64,000 bases of DNA from Candidatus Poribacteria bacterium (GTDB taxonomy: Bacteria > Poribacteria > WGA-4E > WGA-3G): the NCBI GenBank assembly GCA_963663765.2, contig CAXXUA010000004.1, positions 448,001 to 512,000 of the forward strand, given 5' to 3'. Under the pieces are notes generated by a model. That model was not told the origin of the DNA, did not search any database, and saw only the letters and a program-made list of their open reading frames with translations. Positions 8,583 to 16,064 of the stretch are shown one piece after another (the stretch's first letter is position 1; every line of letters begins with the position of its first letter). The position numbers and the translations under genes were made by a program.

Positions 8583-9015
8583 TTAATAGCAAAAAACAAA
8601 AATGTCACACTTTCCAAAATAAGAGTTTTTTAGATTCACACAAAAACACTTCTAAACCCTTACTATGACTGCGACTATAGCCAATATGAAATGTTACCAA
8701 AAAAACGATAAAAGTGTCCATTTGGAAACATTTTGTGAACAATAAAACGAAAATACATTGGAAATTTAACACCCGTTTGTCTCTGAATTAGAAAAAAGTT
8801 GTGCAAAAAATATGAGATTTCAAGTAAAATAACTACTACTTATCTCATAAATGGAAGAAGGGGGTTCTAACCGCGATTTAAAAGACACACGAAATGGCGA
8901 AGTGGAACAAAATCGCATTTATGAGATAGGGTGTATAGAAGGTTAATGTATACGATCAAAATAACAGTTTCAGACAAAATAACAGTTTCAGAATACATAA
9001 ACGGAGACATTGAAT

Positions 9016-10521
9016 ATGCAAACACATTCAAACCTGTTAAGCGATAAACAGATGCAAGATTTCATTGTACGCGGATATGTCACTGTGAAAACGGAGCTTC
9101 CAAGAAGTATCCACGAAACCATCTACCGAAAAACACAGGACTGCACGGAGAAAGAAGGAAACCCAGGGAATAATATCTTACCAAGGGTGCCAGAACTTCA
9201 AGCAGTTTTTGATGATTCTAACGTACGTGGTGCATTTACCAGTATCTTAGGTAAGAATTATGTGATGCATTCACATCGGCATCCACATCGGAATGCACCA
9301 CATAGTAAAGGTCAAGGTTTCCACATGGATAGCTACTGGGGACATCAGAAGGTACGACACCATTATCCACGTTGGGCAATGGCGTTCTATTATCCACAAG
9401 ATACTCCACAGGAAATCGGTCCTTCGTCTGTCCTATCGGGAACGCAATACTACAGTCAACGGATTACGGATGATAACAACGGTGAAATCGTCTTGAGTGG
9501 TGAAGCAGGAACAGTATCCATCATCCATTTTGATTTGTGGCATCGTGCGATTGCAAATCAGACCGACAAAACACGTTACATGATGAAGTTTCAGTTTATT
9601 CGTCTGGATGAACCACAAAAACCGGAATGGAATGTGGAAAGCAATAATTGGAATACTCATGAATATGAATTAAATAAGAATCCTGCATCAGAAAAGCATC
9701 AAACCACATGGCGACATGTGTGGAATTGGATGACAGGAAATGGAAACAGACATGCCACCCAAAATACCAATGGTAATTTGGGGAAACACATTGAAAAACT
9801 ATGTGATGAGAACCCTAATGTCCGTTCTGATGCTGCTGATGAAATAGGACAGTTAGGTGAAAATGCATCAGATGCACTTCCCGCACTTAGTCAAGCATTG
9901 CATGATGAATATGAACCTGTACGACTAAACGCTGCTTATGCTTTGGGGGCAATTGGGGAAGAGGCAGTACCTGTTCTAATTGAGAATCTTGTCTCCGAAA
10001 ATGGACAAGTAAGACGTAAGGCTGCGTATGGTTTAGGCGCAGTTGGAGCACCTGCAGTACCAGCACTTATTGAGGTATTAGAACATGAAAATGATGATGT
10101 TAGAGTTGAAGCAACTTATGCATTAGCACAAATTGGAAATGATGCTAACCCCGCAGTTGCAGCATTGATTGCAAGATCAAAAGATAATAAGGTTGAAGTC
10201 CGTAGATATATTCCAGAAGCTTTTGGCAGCATTGGTGTAAACGCAGCACCCGCAGTACCAACGTTAATTGAAATGTTAGAAAATGATGAAGATGTACAAG
10301 TCCGTTTTGAGTCTGCATTGGCATTAGCACAGATTGGTCCTGCCTCTGTTGATGCAATACCAGTATTGACAAACGCTTTACATGATAAAAACCGATATGT
10401 ACGTGACAATTCTATACATGCACTCAGACAAATAGATACGCCAGAAGCTAAGACTGCACTAATGGATTACTTAGTGACAACGCGTTGGTGTGACATCACC
10501 AACAAGGACAGTAAATTTTGA
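9016..10521 (+). CDS. Phytanoyl-CoA dioxygenase (PhyH)-like domain fused to HEAT/PBS-lyase repeats
   Basis: GFHMD (HxD) and DLWHRA motifs of the Fe/2OG facial triad; C-terminal repeats VRxxAAYALGxIG..AVPAL. Confidence 0.85.
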   Translation: MQTHSNLLSDKQMQDFIVRGYVTVKTELPRSIHETIYRKTQDCTEKEGNPGNNILPRVPELQAVFDDSNVRGAFTSILGKNYVMHSHRHPHRNAPHSKGQGFHMDSYWGHQKVRHHYPRWAMAFYYPQDTPQEIGPSSVLSGTQYYSQRITDDNNGEIVLSGEAGTVSIIHFDLWHRAIANQTDKTRYMMKFQFIRLDEPQKPEWNVESNNWNTHEYELNKNPASEKHQTTWRHVWNWMTGNGNRHATQNTNGNLGKHIEKLCDENPNVRSDAADEIGQLGENASDALPALSQALHDEYEPVRLNAAYALGAIGEEAVPVLIENLVSENGQVRRKAAYGLGAVGAPAVPALIEVLEHENDDVRVEATYALAQIGNDANPAVAALIARSKDNKVEVRRYIPEAFGSIGVNAAPAVPTLIEMLENDEDVQVRFESALALAQIGPASVDAIPVLTNALHDKNRYVRDNSIHALRQIDTPEAKTALMDYLVTTRWCDITNKDSKF

Positions 10522-10852: not shown

Positions 10853-11545
10853 ATGCTCAGACGATTCATTTTATCCTGCTTATTTATCGGTTTTATCGTA
10901 TTTTCAATAGGTTGCCAAGCTATACTAACAGAACAAGTATGGAGTGAAAACTACGCACTTTTGAATGGAGTTACCTCATCAAGTCCACAGATGATTGATG
11001 GCGATATTGCAACTATTGGAGAAACTCAACATCTTAGTAACCAAAGGTTTGCTGGGTGGGGTACTGGTGTTTCAATCAAATTACCTGAAAAAAAGAACAT
11101 CCGTAAAATCGTTATACATTCCGACAATATCAAAAAACTAATTGTCTATGCTGATAAAGGTGGGACTGCTTTATCCCAGACAGATTGGCACATTATTAAA
11201 GAGGTCAGAGGCATAAAAAAATATCCGATTGTAATACCAATTTTACATTCTTTTCCAGTCGACCATATAAGAATTGTCGTTTCTGACACTTCAGACGATG
11301 GAATTCAACGACGACAAGAAAAAGCTGAATTCTACAGTCAAACTTCAACAAGAGATAGACAATTTATGGGAAATAACTTCAGTAATAGGATGAGAGGGAG
11401 AAGGAGTTTTTCTGCACGAATAGGTGAAATTGAACTCTATGGATACAAAGCCAAAACAGATGAGCCAATCAATACAGAAAACAAACGTGAAGAAGAACTT
11501 GATGCAATTCTTGAACCAAATCAAGATACTTCCAAATTTGAATAG
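10853..11545 (+). CDS. Lipoprotein, discoidin/F5-8-type-C-like fold (paralog A, 230 aa)
   Basis: AGGAG RBS; lipobox SIGC; MIDGD..T and ARIGEIELYGYK motifs; paralog of the next gene. Confidence 0.75.
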   Translation: MLRRFILSCLFIGFIVFSIGCQAILTEQVWSENYALLNGVTSSSPQMIDGDIATIGETQHLSNQRFAGWGTGVSIKLPEKKNIRKIVIHSDNIKKLIVYADKGGTALSQTDWHIIKEVRGIKKYPIVIPILHSFPVDHIRIVVSDTSDDGIQRRQEKAEFYSQTSTRDRQFMGNNFSNRMRGRRSFSARIGEIELYGYKAKTDEPINTENKREEELDAILEPNQDTSKFE

Positions 11546-11684
11546 TTATTATTGAAAATCAGAATACTGAAATTATAAGAAAGTTGATTTAGTTGACATT
11601 TCGGTTATACTAAAGTTATAATGTTAATACTTGACAGAATTAGTCAATAATTTTCAAATTCATTACACACTCGGAGACAATAAA

Positions 11685-12377
11685 ATGAATATTAGATTTG
11701 TTCTAATGATCCTCGTATTTTGTGTTTGCGTACTTACCGCAGGTTGTAGTGCTTTGTTATCTCAACAGGAATGGAGCGATAACTATGCACTTCTCGACGG
11801 TGTTCACTCAACGAATATACAAATGACAGATGGTGATTTAAACACAGTTGGTGTAACTGGCTCCTCAGATGTCCCAAGAAATCGTGTAGGTAGAAACTCC
11901 AGTTCATCTCCTGAAGTAATCATCACCTTGCCTGAGAAAAAAGTCATACGACGTATTGTGATCCATTCAGACAATATAAAGAAATTTAACATATACGCAG
12001 ATAAGGGTGGAAGTGCCTTATCAAAAACTGACTGGCAATTAATAAAAGAAGAAAAAAGCGTCAAGTCCGGTCCTATTGTTGTTCCAGTCTTATACGCATA
12101 TCCTACAGACAAAATACGGATTGTGGTCTTAGGAACAACCGATGATGGTGCAATGACCCGTAGAGAAGTTGCACGTGGCGTCCAAAGTGCACTTCTAAGC
12201 TCACAAAGTGGTTCCACCTGAGGCACTGCGGACTGTGGGACTGGAGGTCCCACCCGTATCCGCGCAGCTGCAAAAATCAGTGAAATTGAACTGTTTGGGT
12301 ACAAAACCGTAAGCAATACAGATGATGACCCGATTGACGATCCCCAGCAAAAACAAATTGATTCTTTGCTGTTTTAG
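11685..12377 (+). CDS. Lipoprotein paralog B with in-frame TGA at 12219-12221 (candidate selenoprotein, 230 aa on read-through)
   Basis: GGAG RBS, lipobox LTAGC; the frame continues for 51 codons past the TGA (GTADCGTGGPTRIRAAAKISEIELFGYK...IDSLLF) to TAG 12375-12377 and matches the C-terminus of paralog A. Confidence 0.7.
12222..12267 (+). promoter_or_regulatory. Candidate bacterial SECIS hairpin
   Basis: GTGGGAC-TGGAG-GTCCCAC (12235-12253) stacked on GCGGA/TCCGC (12228-12232/12259-12263), immediately 3' of the in-frame TGA. Confidence 0.55.
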
Positions 12378-12486
12378 TTGAACATGTTTTAGTTGAACAT
12401 TAGATACTCAGTTTCCAGTTAAGGTTATTTCTACTTGGGAATTGCTTTTTACTGGAAACTGACATCAAAATTACATATTTCCAACC

Positions 12487-12984
12487 ATGAAATACTTCGC
12501 TTATGGATCAAATCTTAATATTAAACAGATGACGTGGAGGTGTCAGGACGCTGACCCCTTAGGTGAGTTTACGTTGGAGGGGTATCAACTCGTTTTTCGG
12601 TATTATGCGGATATTGTTCCTGTGGCGGGAAAGTCTGTGAAAGGTGGTCTTTGGGAAATTTCAAAAGACGATGAGAAAGTCCTTGACAGTTATGAAGCGT
12701 ATCCACACCTATATGGAAAATACTACAAGAAAGACATCATGTACTATAGGATGCACGATAATGTCCGGCATTTAGAATTACCATCACCTGGATACCTTGC
12801 GGGAATGCTTGAAGGTATGGAAAATTTCGGTTTATCACCATTAGAAGATCTAAATCACAATCTTGGAAACGAACCCACTGATAAAACAAAAAGAAAAGGC
12901 GATCTTTTGCAACCAGCATTACAGATGATCGCAGACTCCATGGGACTTTCAATTGCAGAGGATGATTCAATCAATATTGAGTAA
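12487..12984 (+). CDS. Gamma-glutamylcyclotransferase (GGCT/AIG2-like) family protein
   Basis: YFAYGSNL N-terminus, LDSYEAYP, PSPGYL. Confidence 0.85.
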   Translation: MKYFAYGSNLNIKQMTWRCQDADPLGEFTLEGYQLVFRYYADIVPVAGKSVKGGLWEISKDDEKVLDSYEAYPHLYGKYYKKDIMYYRMHDNVRHLELPSPGYLAGMLEGMENFGLSPLEDLNHNLGNEPTDKTKRKGDLLQPALQMIADSMGLSIAEDDSINIE

Positions 12985-13168
12985 TTGCAAGTAACCAATT
13001 GTTTAAGCAGGATTATTTTTGATAGATTATACAATTAATCCTATATTCTGAGTTGTAGGAGCGACCTCCTGGTCCCGATACTCTCAGAAAACGGGTATTA
13101 AGAGTAAAACTAAATATCCTAATGTTTAAGAGTTTTACTTTCTAAAAAATCTGTAAATAAGCGATTAT

Positions 13169-14119
13169 CTAAAGAATCTTTAATTCGTCATCTTCCCCAC
13201 TTTCCCGAAGAACTTTATCTAATTCCGCTGCAACAGCAGCAAAAGCACCTGTTTGTGGTGAATTTGGTTTACCCGCAACAATTGGCACACCAATATCCCC
13301 CGCAGTACATACTTCTGCGTCAAGTGGAATCTGTCCTAAGAGTGATACACTAAACCGTTCACTCATGTTCTTACCCCCATCGGAACTGAAAATCTCTGTC
13401 TTCTCATTGCAATGCGGACAAAGGAAATAGCTCATATTCTCAATAATCCCAAGTATCGGTACACCAAGCCGTTCAAACATGGCTACACCACGGCGCACGT
13501 CCGCAAGCGCAACATCCTGCGGTGTCGTTACAATCACAGCACCGGTCATGGGAATTGCCTGCGATAGGGTAAGCGCAACATCACCTGTTCCTGGAGGTAA
13601 ATCAATAATAAGGTAATCAAGTTCTTCCCATTCAACATCTGTGAGAAATTGGCGGATAGCACTATGCAACATCGGTCCACGCCAGATCATCGCTTGTTCT
13701 TCTGGAACCATAAATCCGATTGACATCAACTTAATATCGTGACGAACCAATGGAATTAACTTACGCTGCGGAGTTGTCTGAGGTTTATCCTTAATACCCA
13801 TCATCGTTGGAATACTGGGACCATAAGCATCTGCGTCCATCAAACCGACTGCAGCTCCGTTTTGTGCAAGTGATATAGCCAAATTGGTTGCAACAGTGGA
13901 CTTCCCAACACCCCCCTTACCGCTTGCAACTGCTATCTTATATTTTATGTTTGGTAATGTAATGTTCTGCTGTGACGTTTGTTGCTGTTGGGGTGATGGC
14001 TGCTGTTGGGGACGTTTCCCAGAAATTTCAGAACCACTGATAACTTTTAACTCAGGATGTGATTTTGAGGATTGGTTGGCTTTGTCAGTATCTTTGTCAC
14101 CTTTCTTAAAAAATTTCAA
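13169..14119 (-). CDS. mrp: Mrp/NBP35 (ApbC) Fe-S cluster carrier ATPase
   Basis: SGKGGVGKST, WRGPM, DLPPGTGD, ENMSYFLCPHC. Confidence 0.93.
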   Translation of the reverse strand: MKFFKKGDKDTDKANQSSKSHPELKVISGSEISGKRPQQQPSPQQQQTSQQNITLPNIKYKIAVASGKGGVGKSTVATNLAISLAQNGAAVGLMDADAYGPSIPTMMGIKDKPQTTPQRKLIPLVRHDIKLMSIGFMVPEEQAMIWRGPMLHSAIRQFLTDVEWEELDYLIIDLPPGTGDVALTLSQAIPMTGAVIVTTPQDVALADVRRGVAMFERLGVPILGIIENMSYFLCPHCNEKTEIFSSDGGKNMSERFSVSLLGQIPLDAEVCTAGDIGVPIVAGKPNSPQTGAFAAVAAELDKVLRESGEDDELKIL

Positions 14120-14325
14120 TGTATTTGCTCCTTATTCAATATATCATTACATAATAATGCCATAAAAACATCAGAATTGCCAATCTTTTTTAGATTGTAT
14201 TATTATCAGAACATCTTCTAAGCTAACCAAAATATGCTCATCTGATTACTTACACGAATATTGATTACATTTTTATCAAGTTCTTGTATAATAACAACAA
14301 ACTATCTGAATTGAAAGGCAATATC

Positions 14326-14991
14326 ATGAATATACTAATGTTACGTCACTCTGTTGGTTTTGAACATAGTTACCTACCCGATGCGGAAGTAGCACTCAAG
14401 GCAATTGGTGATGTAAATGGATGGAGAGTCACAACGACGCATCGTTGTGATCGTATCTCTGAGGACAACTTAGCAAAACAGGATATCGTTGCATTTGCAA
14501 CAACAGGAAACTTACCTTTTGATGAAATGCAAAAAGCAGCTCTACTCAACTTTGTCCGGGAGGGAAAAGGTTTCTTCGGTATCCACAATGCTACTGATAC
14601 TTGCTACGATTGGCCTGAATTTGGGGAAATGCTTGGTGGGTATTTCAATGGACATCCATGGCATGAAGAGGTTAACGTCATCGTAGAAGATACTGAACAT
14701 CCTGCAACACGGATGCTCGGAGAAAGTTTCAAAGTTGTTGATGAAATCTATACATTCAAAAACTGGTCTCGTGAAAAGACTCATGTACTAATGCGTTTAG
14801 ACAACGACTCTATTGATGTTTCACGTGGGAACCGTGACGACAACGATTATGCCCTTGGATGGTGCCATTCTTACGGAAAAGGTCGCGTCATGTATACTGC
14901 ATTCGGTCATCCCGATGTGCTTTGGAGTCAACCCTGGTTCCGTGAACACATCACCGGATGCCTAAAATGGGTAGGTAGTTTAGAAGACTGA
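14326..14991 (+). CDS. ThuA-like (trehalose utilisation, GATase1-like) domain protein
   Basis: GFEH, GKGFFGIHNA, GGYFNGHP, DEIY, GRVMYTAFGH. Confidence 0.85.
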   Translation: MNILMLRHSVGFEHSYLPDAEVALKAIGDVNGWRVTTTHRCDRISEDNLAKQDIVAFATTGNLPFDEMQKAALLNFVREGKGFFGIHNATDTCYDWPEFGEMLGGYFNGHPWHEEVNVIVEDTEHPATRMLGESFKVVDEIYTFKNWSREKTHVLMRLDNDSIDVSRGNRDDNDYALGWCHSYGKGRVMYTAFGHPDVLWSQPWFREHITGCLKWVGSLED

Positions 14992-15062
14992 TAGAAATTC
15001 ATAGTTGTAGCAACAGTAGGAAGGTCTACGTACCTGCCTTACTGTTGCTACATTTTCTGTTC

Positions 15063-16064
15063 CTATGATTTAATTAGACCCGTTGCCCGTAGCAATGTCT
15101 CCTGAACCAATAATTCATGAGATACCGGTCTATCAGGGGGTTGTTCTCCAGCAATTGTCGCCAAAAACGCTACCAATTCCAGCTCATATAAACGTTGTCG
15201 ACCTTCACCTACAATATTCAGGAACTGTTCTCCTTTAGAATATCCATCCTTTGCTTCCTGTAAACAGAGACGGATTGTATTGCCCGGTTCAAACGGTTCA
15301 ACGATGATAGCACTGCCTTCCGTGCCATACACCTCAAATCGGCGTGCCATGGGTCTCGGTTCTATAGCAGAAATCGTAATGAAAGCTATTGCTTTTTCAA
15401 ATTCATAAACAGTGAGTGTATTATCCTTGAATGGTTCTACCGATCCTCCATCATTGCGGAGAAAACTCGTTACCTTTTCAGGTCTACCTAACATCCACAC
15501 AATTTGATCCAGAACATGTCCACCTAAATCAAAAAAGATGCCACCCGTATGCTGACTTATCCGCATTCGTGCTTCTTGTGAGACATTAGTTGACATGTGT
15601 GCGCGAACTGAGAACACGTTCCCCAGAAAACCTGATCGCGCCCAGTCAGTCACTTGTTTGAAACTGGAGTGGTATCGCAACATATAACCCAACTGTACCA
15701 GTAGAGATTTTTCTTGAACTGTTTTGATAACACGTTGCCACTGTTCCCAGTTTTCACCAGCGGGTTTGTCGTACCATACATGTTTACCAGCATTTACAAT
15801 CTGTTCTGTCTGATCTAAACTTTCAATGTTGCTCCCTTCTGATGCCACCGCAACGATTGTCTCATCTTCTAACATCTCGTTGACATTTGCAAACCAGTGG
15901 ACATCATCAGACCAACCACCATTTGCTTGCAGTTTTAAGCGTTGTTCTTCGTCCGGTTCAAAAACCCCAGCAACCTCTACATTAGGATTGCTGAGCATTG
16001 CATGGAGTTTACCACGCGCATGTCCATGTTTGGTGCCGTATTGTGCCATTCGTATTTTTGTCAT
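15063..16064 (-). CDS. Gfo/Idh/MocA family oxidoreductase
   Basis: GKHVWYDKP, GYMLRY, GGIFFDLGGH. Confidence 0.88.
   Translation of the reverse strand: MTKIRMAQYGTKHGHARGKLHAMLSNPNVEVAGVFEPDEEQRLKLQANGGWSDDVHWFANVNEMLEDETIVAVASEGSNIESLDQTEQIVNAGKHVWYDKPAGENWEQWQRVIKTVQEKSLLVQLGYMLRYHSSFKQVTDWARSGFLGNVFSVRAHMSTNVSQEARMRISQHTGGIFFDLGGHVLDQIVWMLGRPEKVTSFLRNDGGSVEPFKDNTLTVYEFEKAIAFITISAIEPRPMARRFEVYGTEGSAIIVEPFEPGNTIRLCLQEAKDGYSKGEQFLNIVGEGRQRLYELELVAFLATIAGEQPPDRPVSHELLVQETLLRATGLIKS

Follow-up and report, generated by a model that had tools for sequence, protein, structure and literature searches.

Whether an in-frame TGA ends a gene or is read as selenocysteine (Sec) is the question raised by a locus in a 64,000-nucleotide stretch of Candidatus Poribacteria DNA (the window; assembly GCA_963663765.2, contig CAXXUA010000004.1, positions 448,001 to 512,000). 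A forward-strand gene of 230 codons plus TAG (11685–12377) carries TGA at 12219–12221 as codon 179, the sole in-frame stop ahead of the TAG at 12375–12377, with 51 codons remaining between the two. As a preliminary description of the locus had read from the sequence, the read-through product comprises 230 amino acids, a length equal to that of a Sec-free tandem paralog (10853–11545, forward strand, 230 amino acids, 44–47% identical, likewise a lipobox lipoprotein), and the frame 3' of the TGA restores AKISEIELFGYK, matching the C-terminal motif ARIGEIELYGYK of the paralog. The TGA lies in a loop, SGST-U-GTAD-C-GTGG, whose counterpart in the paralog is Cys-free, and the Cys of this loop (Cys184, TGT at 12234–12236, forward strand) is the only one in the mature chain besides the lipid-modified Cys21. 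The comparative analysis argues that Sec is probably inserted at UGA 12219–12221 and that this is a genuine selenoprotein gene, with a probability of roughly 0.87, whereas any specific function of the Sec protein is to be rated much lower than Sec insertion itself.

The TGA is shared by a sizeable set of related genes. All 61 genomes of the order that were searched hold family members, with 30 rows showing exactly one TGA. When the search was extended to 176 genomes of the phylum, a single in-frame TGA was found in 35 genes from 30 of the 40 genomes of the window's genus and in no row outside it, the sister genus (65 genomes) having Sec-free forms only. These 35 Sec genes were extracted as 29 and then six more; in the 28 that are full-length and could be aligned the TGA, U179 in the window's gene, always occupies a single alignment column (28/28), usually behind S-G-S-[ST], the TGA of the seven others being read directly by eye, and identity to the window's protein falls to 52%. 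A further row that had looked like a Sec gene with one TGA and one TAA (G110) proved to be a Sec-free gene of 211 residues ending at the TAA. One species (G063:C8 and C25; L058–L061) has four Sec paralogs, three of them near copies with the loop GSTU-GSMTGAGGP, no neighbouring Cys and the stem GGGGC/GCCCC.

A sequencing error or strain-specific nonsense allele, raised at the outset as a way in which the proposal might fail, finds no support in independent data. A 549-nt RNA-library contig of another study covers 11800–12348 with three differences, none at the TGA, which is also present in independent assemblies; RNA-library contigs span only portions of the gene and were used solely for the presence of the TGA in independent data. 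Public runs containing this stretch include sponge metagenomes, and the named database relatives are Candidatus Poribacteria, all annotated 'hypothetical protein'. About 60 of the best 120 database matches end at the TGA (...SGS[ST]). The family is small, a search of 1.84 billion representatives yielding 181 clusters at E <= 0.001.

Sequence 3' of the TGA retains the character of a coding region. In the Sec genes the frame stays open for some 50 codons beyond the TGA, the two alternative frames containing 1–4 and 6–10 stops in the six genes checked. The ratio of nonsynonymous to synonymous substitution rates (dN/dS) is 0.29 after the TGA versus 0.18 before it (NG86, ratio of means, 151 of 378 possible pairs retained by dS filters), below 1 as anticipated by the preliminary description, and the 51 codons after the TGA are under purifying selection. 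No variation was seen at E200, I201, E202, G205 or Y206 among 52 family members, with or without Sec; these residues belong to codons 200–207 (EIELFGYK, 12282–12305, forward strand), modelled as the final β-strand. Since E200–Y206 form a core strand in the model, a product stopping at the TGA would miss part of the fold.

Directly behind the TGA lies a hairpin resembling a bacterial Sec insertion sequence (SECIS). The segment GTGGGAC, starting at 12235 and 13 nt after the TGA, pairs with GTCCCAC at 12247–12253, and RNAfold adds a U-G pair to give an 8-bp apical stem (12235–12242 with 12246–12253) closed by a GGA triloop at 12243–12245. The apical hairpin thus reads GUGGGACU / GGA loop / GGUCCCAC (12235–12253, forward strand), its loop starting 24 nt past the U of the UGA, and the whole predicted stem-loop (12228–12263, forward strand) includes a lower stem of GCGGA (12228–12232) with TCCGC (12259–12263). 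Its energy of −24.6 kcal/mol (z = −2.41) was equalled by two of 200 shuffles, and a comparable hairpin, defined by at least 7 bp, at least five G-C pairs and a G-containing loop of 3–5 nt at +20 to +28, follows only 201 of the 263,016 TGA triplets of the genome (0.076%), the candidate having 8 bp, five G-C pairs and its loop at +24. The hairpin after the TGA exceeds chance. In the available part of PMC1088965 the bacterial SECIS is described as a stem-loop just past the UGA with a small G-containing apical loop, a description that the candidate hairpin fits.

Relatives preserve this arrangement in a manner expected of a structured element. A continuous stem (5 bp or more, three or more G-C pairs) whose G-containing loop begins at +20 to +27 past the U is found in 26 of 29 Sec genes but in none of the 12 Sec-free paralogs inspected at the corresponding site, and the six additional Sec genes fold alike (6/6). 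Because a joint MAFFT alignment of the 29 is out of register, hairpin segments were cut around the loop and two classes aligned separately, class A (20 sequences) following G(G/A)GAC-(C/U)GG(U/A)G-GUC(C/U)C and class B (nine sequences) G(G/C)GGC-AGUUC-GCC(U/G)(C/U). Of the cells of the apical helix, 85.6% are paired in class A (an 8-pair helix) and 87.5% in class B, versus 35–60% when the partners are slid; for the whole class A structure including the lower stem the figure is 71.5%, versus 35–48%. Compensatory changes, one of the signs of function proposed in the preliminary description, comprise G-C to A-U (four sequences), U-A to C-G (two) and A-U to C-G (one) in class A, and G-U to C-G (three sequences) in class B, and three unrelated stems occupy the same place (GGGAC/GUCCC, GGGGC/GCCCC and GCGGC/GCCGU). 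The G+C content of the 63-nt hairpin region is 0.56 versus 0.40 for the rest of the gene, and 0.41 versus 0.38 in Sec-free paralogs, although Mann-Whitney values for this comparison overstate the difference, related sequences not being independent. Of the hairpin as originally drawn, it is the apical stem that is conserved; the lower stem GCGGA/UCCGC, considered as a conserved element, was rejected with 49% of its cells paired across 20 sequences, and is particular to the window's genome. A mobile cassette of UGA and hairpin was likewise discarded, since a blastn-short search with 12201–12290 against the genome matched only itself.

The genome has what is needed to use such a signal. The 6.35-Mb assembly encodes a tRNA-Sec (78.5 bits, anticodon TCA), selB (361.6 bits), selA (620.8 bits) and selD (367.6 bits), the complete set whose presence had been named as the first thing to check, and selD carries its own in-frame TGA in CAG-U-ASK. 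selB is followed by tRNA-Sec within 54 nt, with selA about 10 kb off (G000:C4:273328–286381), a region on the same contig as the window and about 162–175 kb upstream of it. TGA is an ordinary stop here, terminating 457 of 2438 open reading frames (ORFs) of at least 300 amino acids. A single in-frame TGA is present in each of nine among 24 AhpC/TSA matches, in the single Rdx/SelW match and in a formate-dehydrogenase-like match, and at least 11 TGA-containing redox genes exist in the genome besides the candidate. Five of 12 other TGA genes fold with a stem of 6–7 bp and a triloop at +24 to +26 (AGU, GGC, GUU and GGA among them), a sixth having an identical stem-loop sequence; the candidate's GGA triloop likewise lies at +24 to +26. 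The AhpC/TSA, Rdx/SelW-like and formate-dehydrogenase-like TGA genes have a hairpin after the TGA, and several are paired in the genome; coordinates of other TGA genes are G000:C5:150463–150828, C5:472289–473413, C6:87407–88231, C8:52546–52932, C15:303703–304074, C5:1756583–1760625, C5:1158529–1158747 and C13:518987–519784. Testing for an anticorrelation of Sec form and Sec machinery gave no information, selA exceeding its cut-off in 37 of the genus's 40 genomes; the assemblies of the other three (G013, G025 and G016) are broken into 140 to 720 contigs, with completeness of only 73–81% in two cases. Taken together, comparison shows that the UGA is recoded and translated, and that a conserved SECIS-like hairpin accompanies it in a genome that uses Sec.

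The surroundings of the Sec residue vary in an instructive way. The UxxxxC arrangement noted in the preliminary description is present in the window's gene, but its spacing is not conserved: 28 of the 35 Sec genes have a Cys no more than eight residues from U, at +5/+6 in 12, +1 in five, −6 in six and −8 in five. The mature parts of the Sec-free paralogs inspected have no Cys. Such a recurring Cys is the pattern that a Se–S pair on a flexible loop would give, though it is not universal. Conservation of TGA or Cys at the Sec codon, which had been put forward as a test, took the form of TGA in the Sec genes, with no Cys form and with Arg or Gln in one sublineage. In a maximum-likelihood tree of 90 rows, which kept the loop columns and treated U as a gap, the 28 Sec forms and four Sec-free rows make up one clade (SH-aLRT 99), the four Sec-free rows having Arg or Gln at the position. 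In one of them (G034), whose sister (G015) has TGA, the codon is CGA and the hairpin degraded. The nesting of the Sec clade, together with these Arg/Gln rows, points to a single gain of Sec from a Cys-free ancestor followed by one or two losses, and the Sec form probably has a single origin, in the duplication of a paralog with neither Sec nor Cys, inside one Poribacteria genus.

The encoded protein is an apparent lipoprotein with a recognizable scaffold. Its signal peptide (11685–11747, forward strand), MNIRFVLMILVFCVCVLTAG|C, ends in the lipobox L-T-A-G-C and fits the consensus [LVI][ASTVI][GAS]C, Cys21 being invariant and G20 nearly so across 52 members, in keeping with the original assignment as a lipoprotein. 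The genome has lspA (133.4 bits, above cut-off) and an lgt-like gene at 91.2 bits, below the cut-off of 118.9 (E 1.7e-25). An AlphaFold2 model built on the 52-sequence alignment has a mean predicted local distance difference test score (pLDDT) of 66.8, with 10-residue block means of 81–88 for a β core (residues 81–160) and 73–76 for the last strand (198–207); a helix spans 154–174, and an insert of about 45 residues, comprising helix and Sec loop, precedes the last strand. VIA-align matched the model to 3gza_B (Z 11.1, 2.2 Å, 93 residues) and 2xqx_B (Z 10.3), all of the 50 matches listed having Z of at least 8.6 and nearly all belonging by title to the discoidin/CBM32 superfamily, Foldseek gave E of about 1e-4 to APC10 and CBM32, and an Atlas search with the paralog pointed to the same fold. 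The fold is thus predicted to be a β-sandwich of the discoidin / F5/8 type C / CBM32 kind, as had been suggested from the sequence, and the motifs xIDGDxxTxG and EIExYG near both ends resemble the sequence hallmarks of discoidin/CBM32 domains. The read-through protein matches no Pfam or NCBIfam family at E <= 1, PF00754 included, and the paralog gives a single sub-threshold hemagglutinin-domain row (E 0.021) against the same databases.

Several observations weigh against Sec insertion or against a defined role for the residue. Shuffle-based energy z-scores of the hairpins are modest (mean −0.52), stability owing much to G+C, and the observed covariation was reached by 23–55 of 500 shuffles, so that, coming from kin sequences, it is suggestive and not decisive alone; an Rfam search of 12150–12330 at E <= 10 returned chance rows only. 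Cys stands at the Sec position in none of 51 close full-length relatives, and of 66 distant cluster representatives, namely those having the terminal strand, only one has a Cys anywhere in the 38 residues that precede this strand. Most known selenoprotein families do have Cys forms according to the available part of PMC1088965. Seven of 35 Sec genes are without a nearby Cys, so that a selenenylsulfide cannot be a universal mechanism; Arg (CGA) or Gln takes the place of Sec in one nested sublineage, making the residue dispensable there; and the loop of residues 177–186 with U179 has pLDDT below 50, its placement relative to any binding site being of low confidence.

These observations bear differently on the alternatives. 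The one that survives best is itself compatible with Sec insertion, and takes the UGA to be mainly a selenium-dependent switch, such that the full lipoprotein would be made with selenium, while without it a truncated, unstable product would result and the Sec-free paralog would take over, Sec chemistry being less important than control. Sec-free paralogs do occur in every genome, in tandem (within 1.5 kb) at 10 of 28 loci, and both the tolerance of Arg or Gln and the placement of Sec in a loop with no recognizable active site would sit well with it; the recurrent neighbouring Cys, however, points to chemistry at the site, and no regulator or selenium-responsive element turned up, though no search was aimed at them, leaving this an unlikely account.

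It is less probable still, and indeed very unlikely, that a near-cognate or suppressor tRNA reads the UGA as Trp, Arg, Cys or Gly, with the hairpin merely slowing termination. The lack of any homologue with Cys at the position, the relative in which CGA (Arg) is one base from TGA, and the location of the residue within a variable, disordered loop would all accord with such read-through, but in size, loop type and distance from the UGA the hairpin equals those of the genome's peroxiredoxin-type, SelW-like and SelD genes, the genome has the complete Sec machinery, and the Cys that recurs next to the site, at four spacings, in 28 of 35 genes is expected for a Se–S pair and not for Trp or Arg. That the TGA is a true stop, in a decaying pseudogene, through a sequencing error, or at the end of a 178-residue protein with non-coding or independently used DNA behind it, agrees with the public gene calls that terminate there (about 60 of the best 120 matches) but is next to impossible to reconcile with its retention in 35 genes of 30 genomes, a same frame open for some 50 codons in all of them at dN/dS 0.29 while the others hold 1–4 and 6–10 stops (six genes), a downstream part providing an invariant core strand of the fold, and the same TGA in independent assemblies and an RNA-library contig.

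Insertion of Sec being the preferred reading, a plausible sequence of events can be outlined. SelB with Sec-tRNA(Sec) would decode UGA 12219–12221 as selenocysteine, guided by the hairpin 13 nt downstream acting as an in-CDS (coding sequence) bacterial SECIS, and the ribosome would continue for 51 codons. The product would then be exported and lipid-anchored, presumably via Cys21, folding as a discoidin/CBM32-like β-sandwich, with Sec179 on a flexible Gly/Ser/Thr-rich loop between the helix and the last β-strand and, in most orthologs, the only free mature Cys adjoining it. The selenolate may serve as an envelope-side redox-active or soft-metal-binding group, pairing in most orthologs with the adjacent Cys as a selenenylsulfide or Se/S chelate. 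A bolder and more doubtful possibility, to which we would give some weight while not expecting it to hold, is that this is a de novo Sec family in which UGA and SECIS arose in a surface loop that never had Cys, selenium acting as an exposed envelope ligand or tether and not as a thiol-oxidoreductase centre. The selenium might then capture a soft metal or metalloid, or be joined through a covalent Se–S bond to a partner, or to a molecule of the host, that the discoidin-like domain binds. If true, this would extend Sec use beyond the Cys-replacement paradigm underlying most selenoprotein searches.

The selenoprotein family is real and apparently unreported, although the recoding mechanism on which it relies is the usual one of bacteria. 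What sets it apart is the lectin-like lipoprotein scaffold, a Sec in a disordered loop, a Cys partner that shifts in position, the lack of a Cys form, and a single, recent origin in one genus. In agreement with the impression of an unrecognized family, it is absent from Table 1 of PMC13188914, the portion of that source considered here, whose 119 prokaryotic selenoprotein families all carry a domain identifier; this comparison went through Pfam/NCBIfam, families known by CDD or PANTHER only not being scanned directly. The literature search brought up no publication on a selenoprotein family that is discoidin-like or specific to Poribacteria, although supplementary gene lists (e.g. PMC12013277) might contain it, and the sole paper naming both Poribacteria and selenoprotein deals, in the part of its text that is available, with [NiFeSe] hydrogenases.

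Like AhpC/TSA, SelW-like and SelD genes of the same genome, the candidate has a UGA followed about 14–17 nt on by a G+C-rich stem of 6–8 bp with a small G-containing loop at about +24, and presumably shares with them the SelA/SelB/SelD/tRNA-Sec pathway; those proteins, however, have cytoplasmic-type thioredoxin or kinase folds, widespread Cys forms and fixed motifs (UxxC), whereas the candidate is a lectin-like lipoprotein with a disordered-loop Sec, variable spacing and no Cys form. With CBM32 / F5/8 type C modules (2xqx, 2v72 and the C-terminal domain of 3gza) it shares the predicted β-sandwich (Z 10–11, root-mean-square deviation 2.2–4.1 Å, 93–110 residues), yet it is a stand-alone lipoprotein and not appended to an enzyme, has the insert of about 45 residues and lacks a PF00754 match; none of the CBM32-type modules among the matches listed is titled as a selenoprotein. 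The exported selenoproteins in Table 1 of PMC13188914 (DsbA-like, DsbG-like, substrate-binding SaoB/SaoX, BtuF and an FCYXU-type TonB-dependent receptor) have extracytoplasmic Sec, as proposed here, and were likewise predicted by comparative genomics, but as listed there they have a Pfam, NCBIfam or CDD model, whereas the candidate matches no Pfam or NCBIfam model.

A ribosome-binding site GGAG (11673–11676, forward strand) lies 8 nt upstream of ATG 11685–11687, and a predicted sigma-70-like promoter, TTGACA-18 nt-TATAAT (11593–11622, forward strand), agrees with the consensus at 12 of 12 positions, a consensus match only. A 15-bp unit, TGTTTTAGTTGAACA, is tandemly repeated over the stop codon of the Sec gene (12370–12399), and an RNA-library contig (run X8) is without 15 nt at 12370, so that an unduplicated variant exists. 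Further on, an inverted repeat, TCAGTTTCCAGTTAA / TTTACTGGAAACTGA, with 25 nt between its arms (12408–12462), separates the Sec gene from the next gene and was not scored as an intrinsic terminator. An antisense ORF of 170 amino acids (11804–12316, reverse strand) opposite the Sec gene recurs in three of nine loci, a 'conservation' most simply explained as a shadow of the conserved sense gene.

The gene directly downstream is GGACT/AIG2-like (12487–12984, forward strand; Pfam PF06094, E 9.5e-11), and follows the Sec gene in eight of the nine loci compared (L050–L057 and the window). It opens a block continuing with an Mrp/NUBPL ATPase on the opposite strand, ThuA and a GFO/IDH/MocA oxidoreductase (window 12487–16064), which adjoins the Sec gene and is syntenic in 7–8 of the nine loci, while gene content upstream of the Sec gene varies among species. 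As a functional partner the GGACT-like gene was rejected, the three following genes being syntenic too, and its adjacency may reflect no more than gene order shared across the genus. The protein encoded at 9010–10521, upstream of the two paralogs, joins a weak PhyH (phytanoyl-CoA dioxygenase) match to a long run of HEAT repeats.

For Poribacteria, an immediate consequence is that annotations now ending as fragments of about 175 amino acids are to be corrected to full-length proteins of about 225. Bacterial selenoprotein discovery, as described in the available part of PMC1088965, has leaned on aligned Sec/Cys pairs, and having no Cys form, this family is invisible to such a filter; more families without Cys forms may be hidden likewise by gene calls cut at TGA. 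A single origin in one genus, with one or two losses, offers a datable case for the joint rise of a UGA and a SECIS in a coding loop, and the setting of the Sec itself would be an unusual one, in a non-thioredoxin, lectin-like and lipid-anchored protein of uncultured sponge symbionts.

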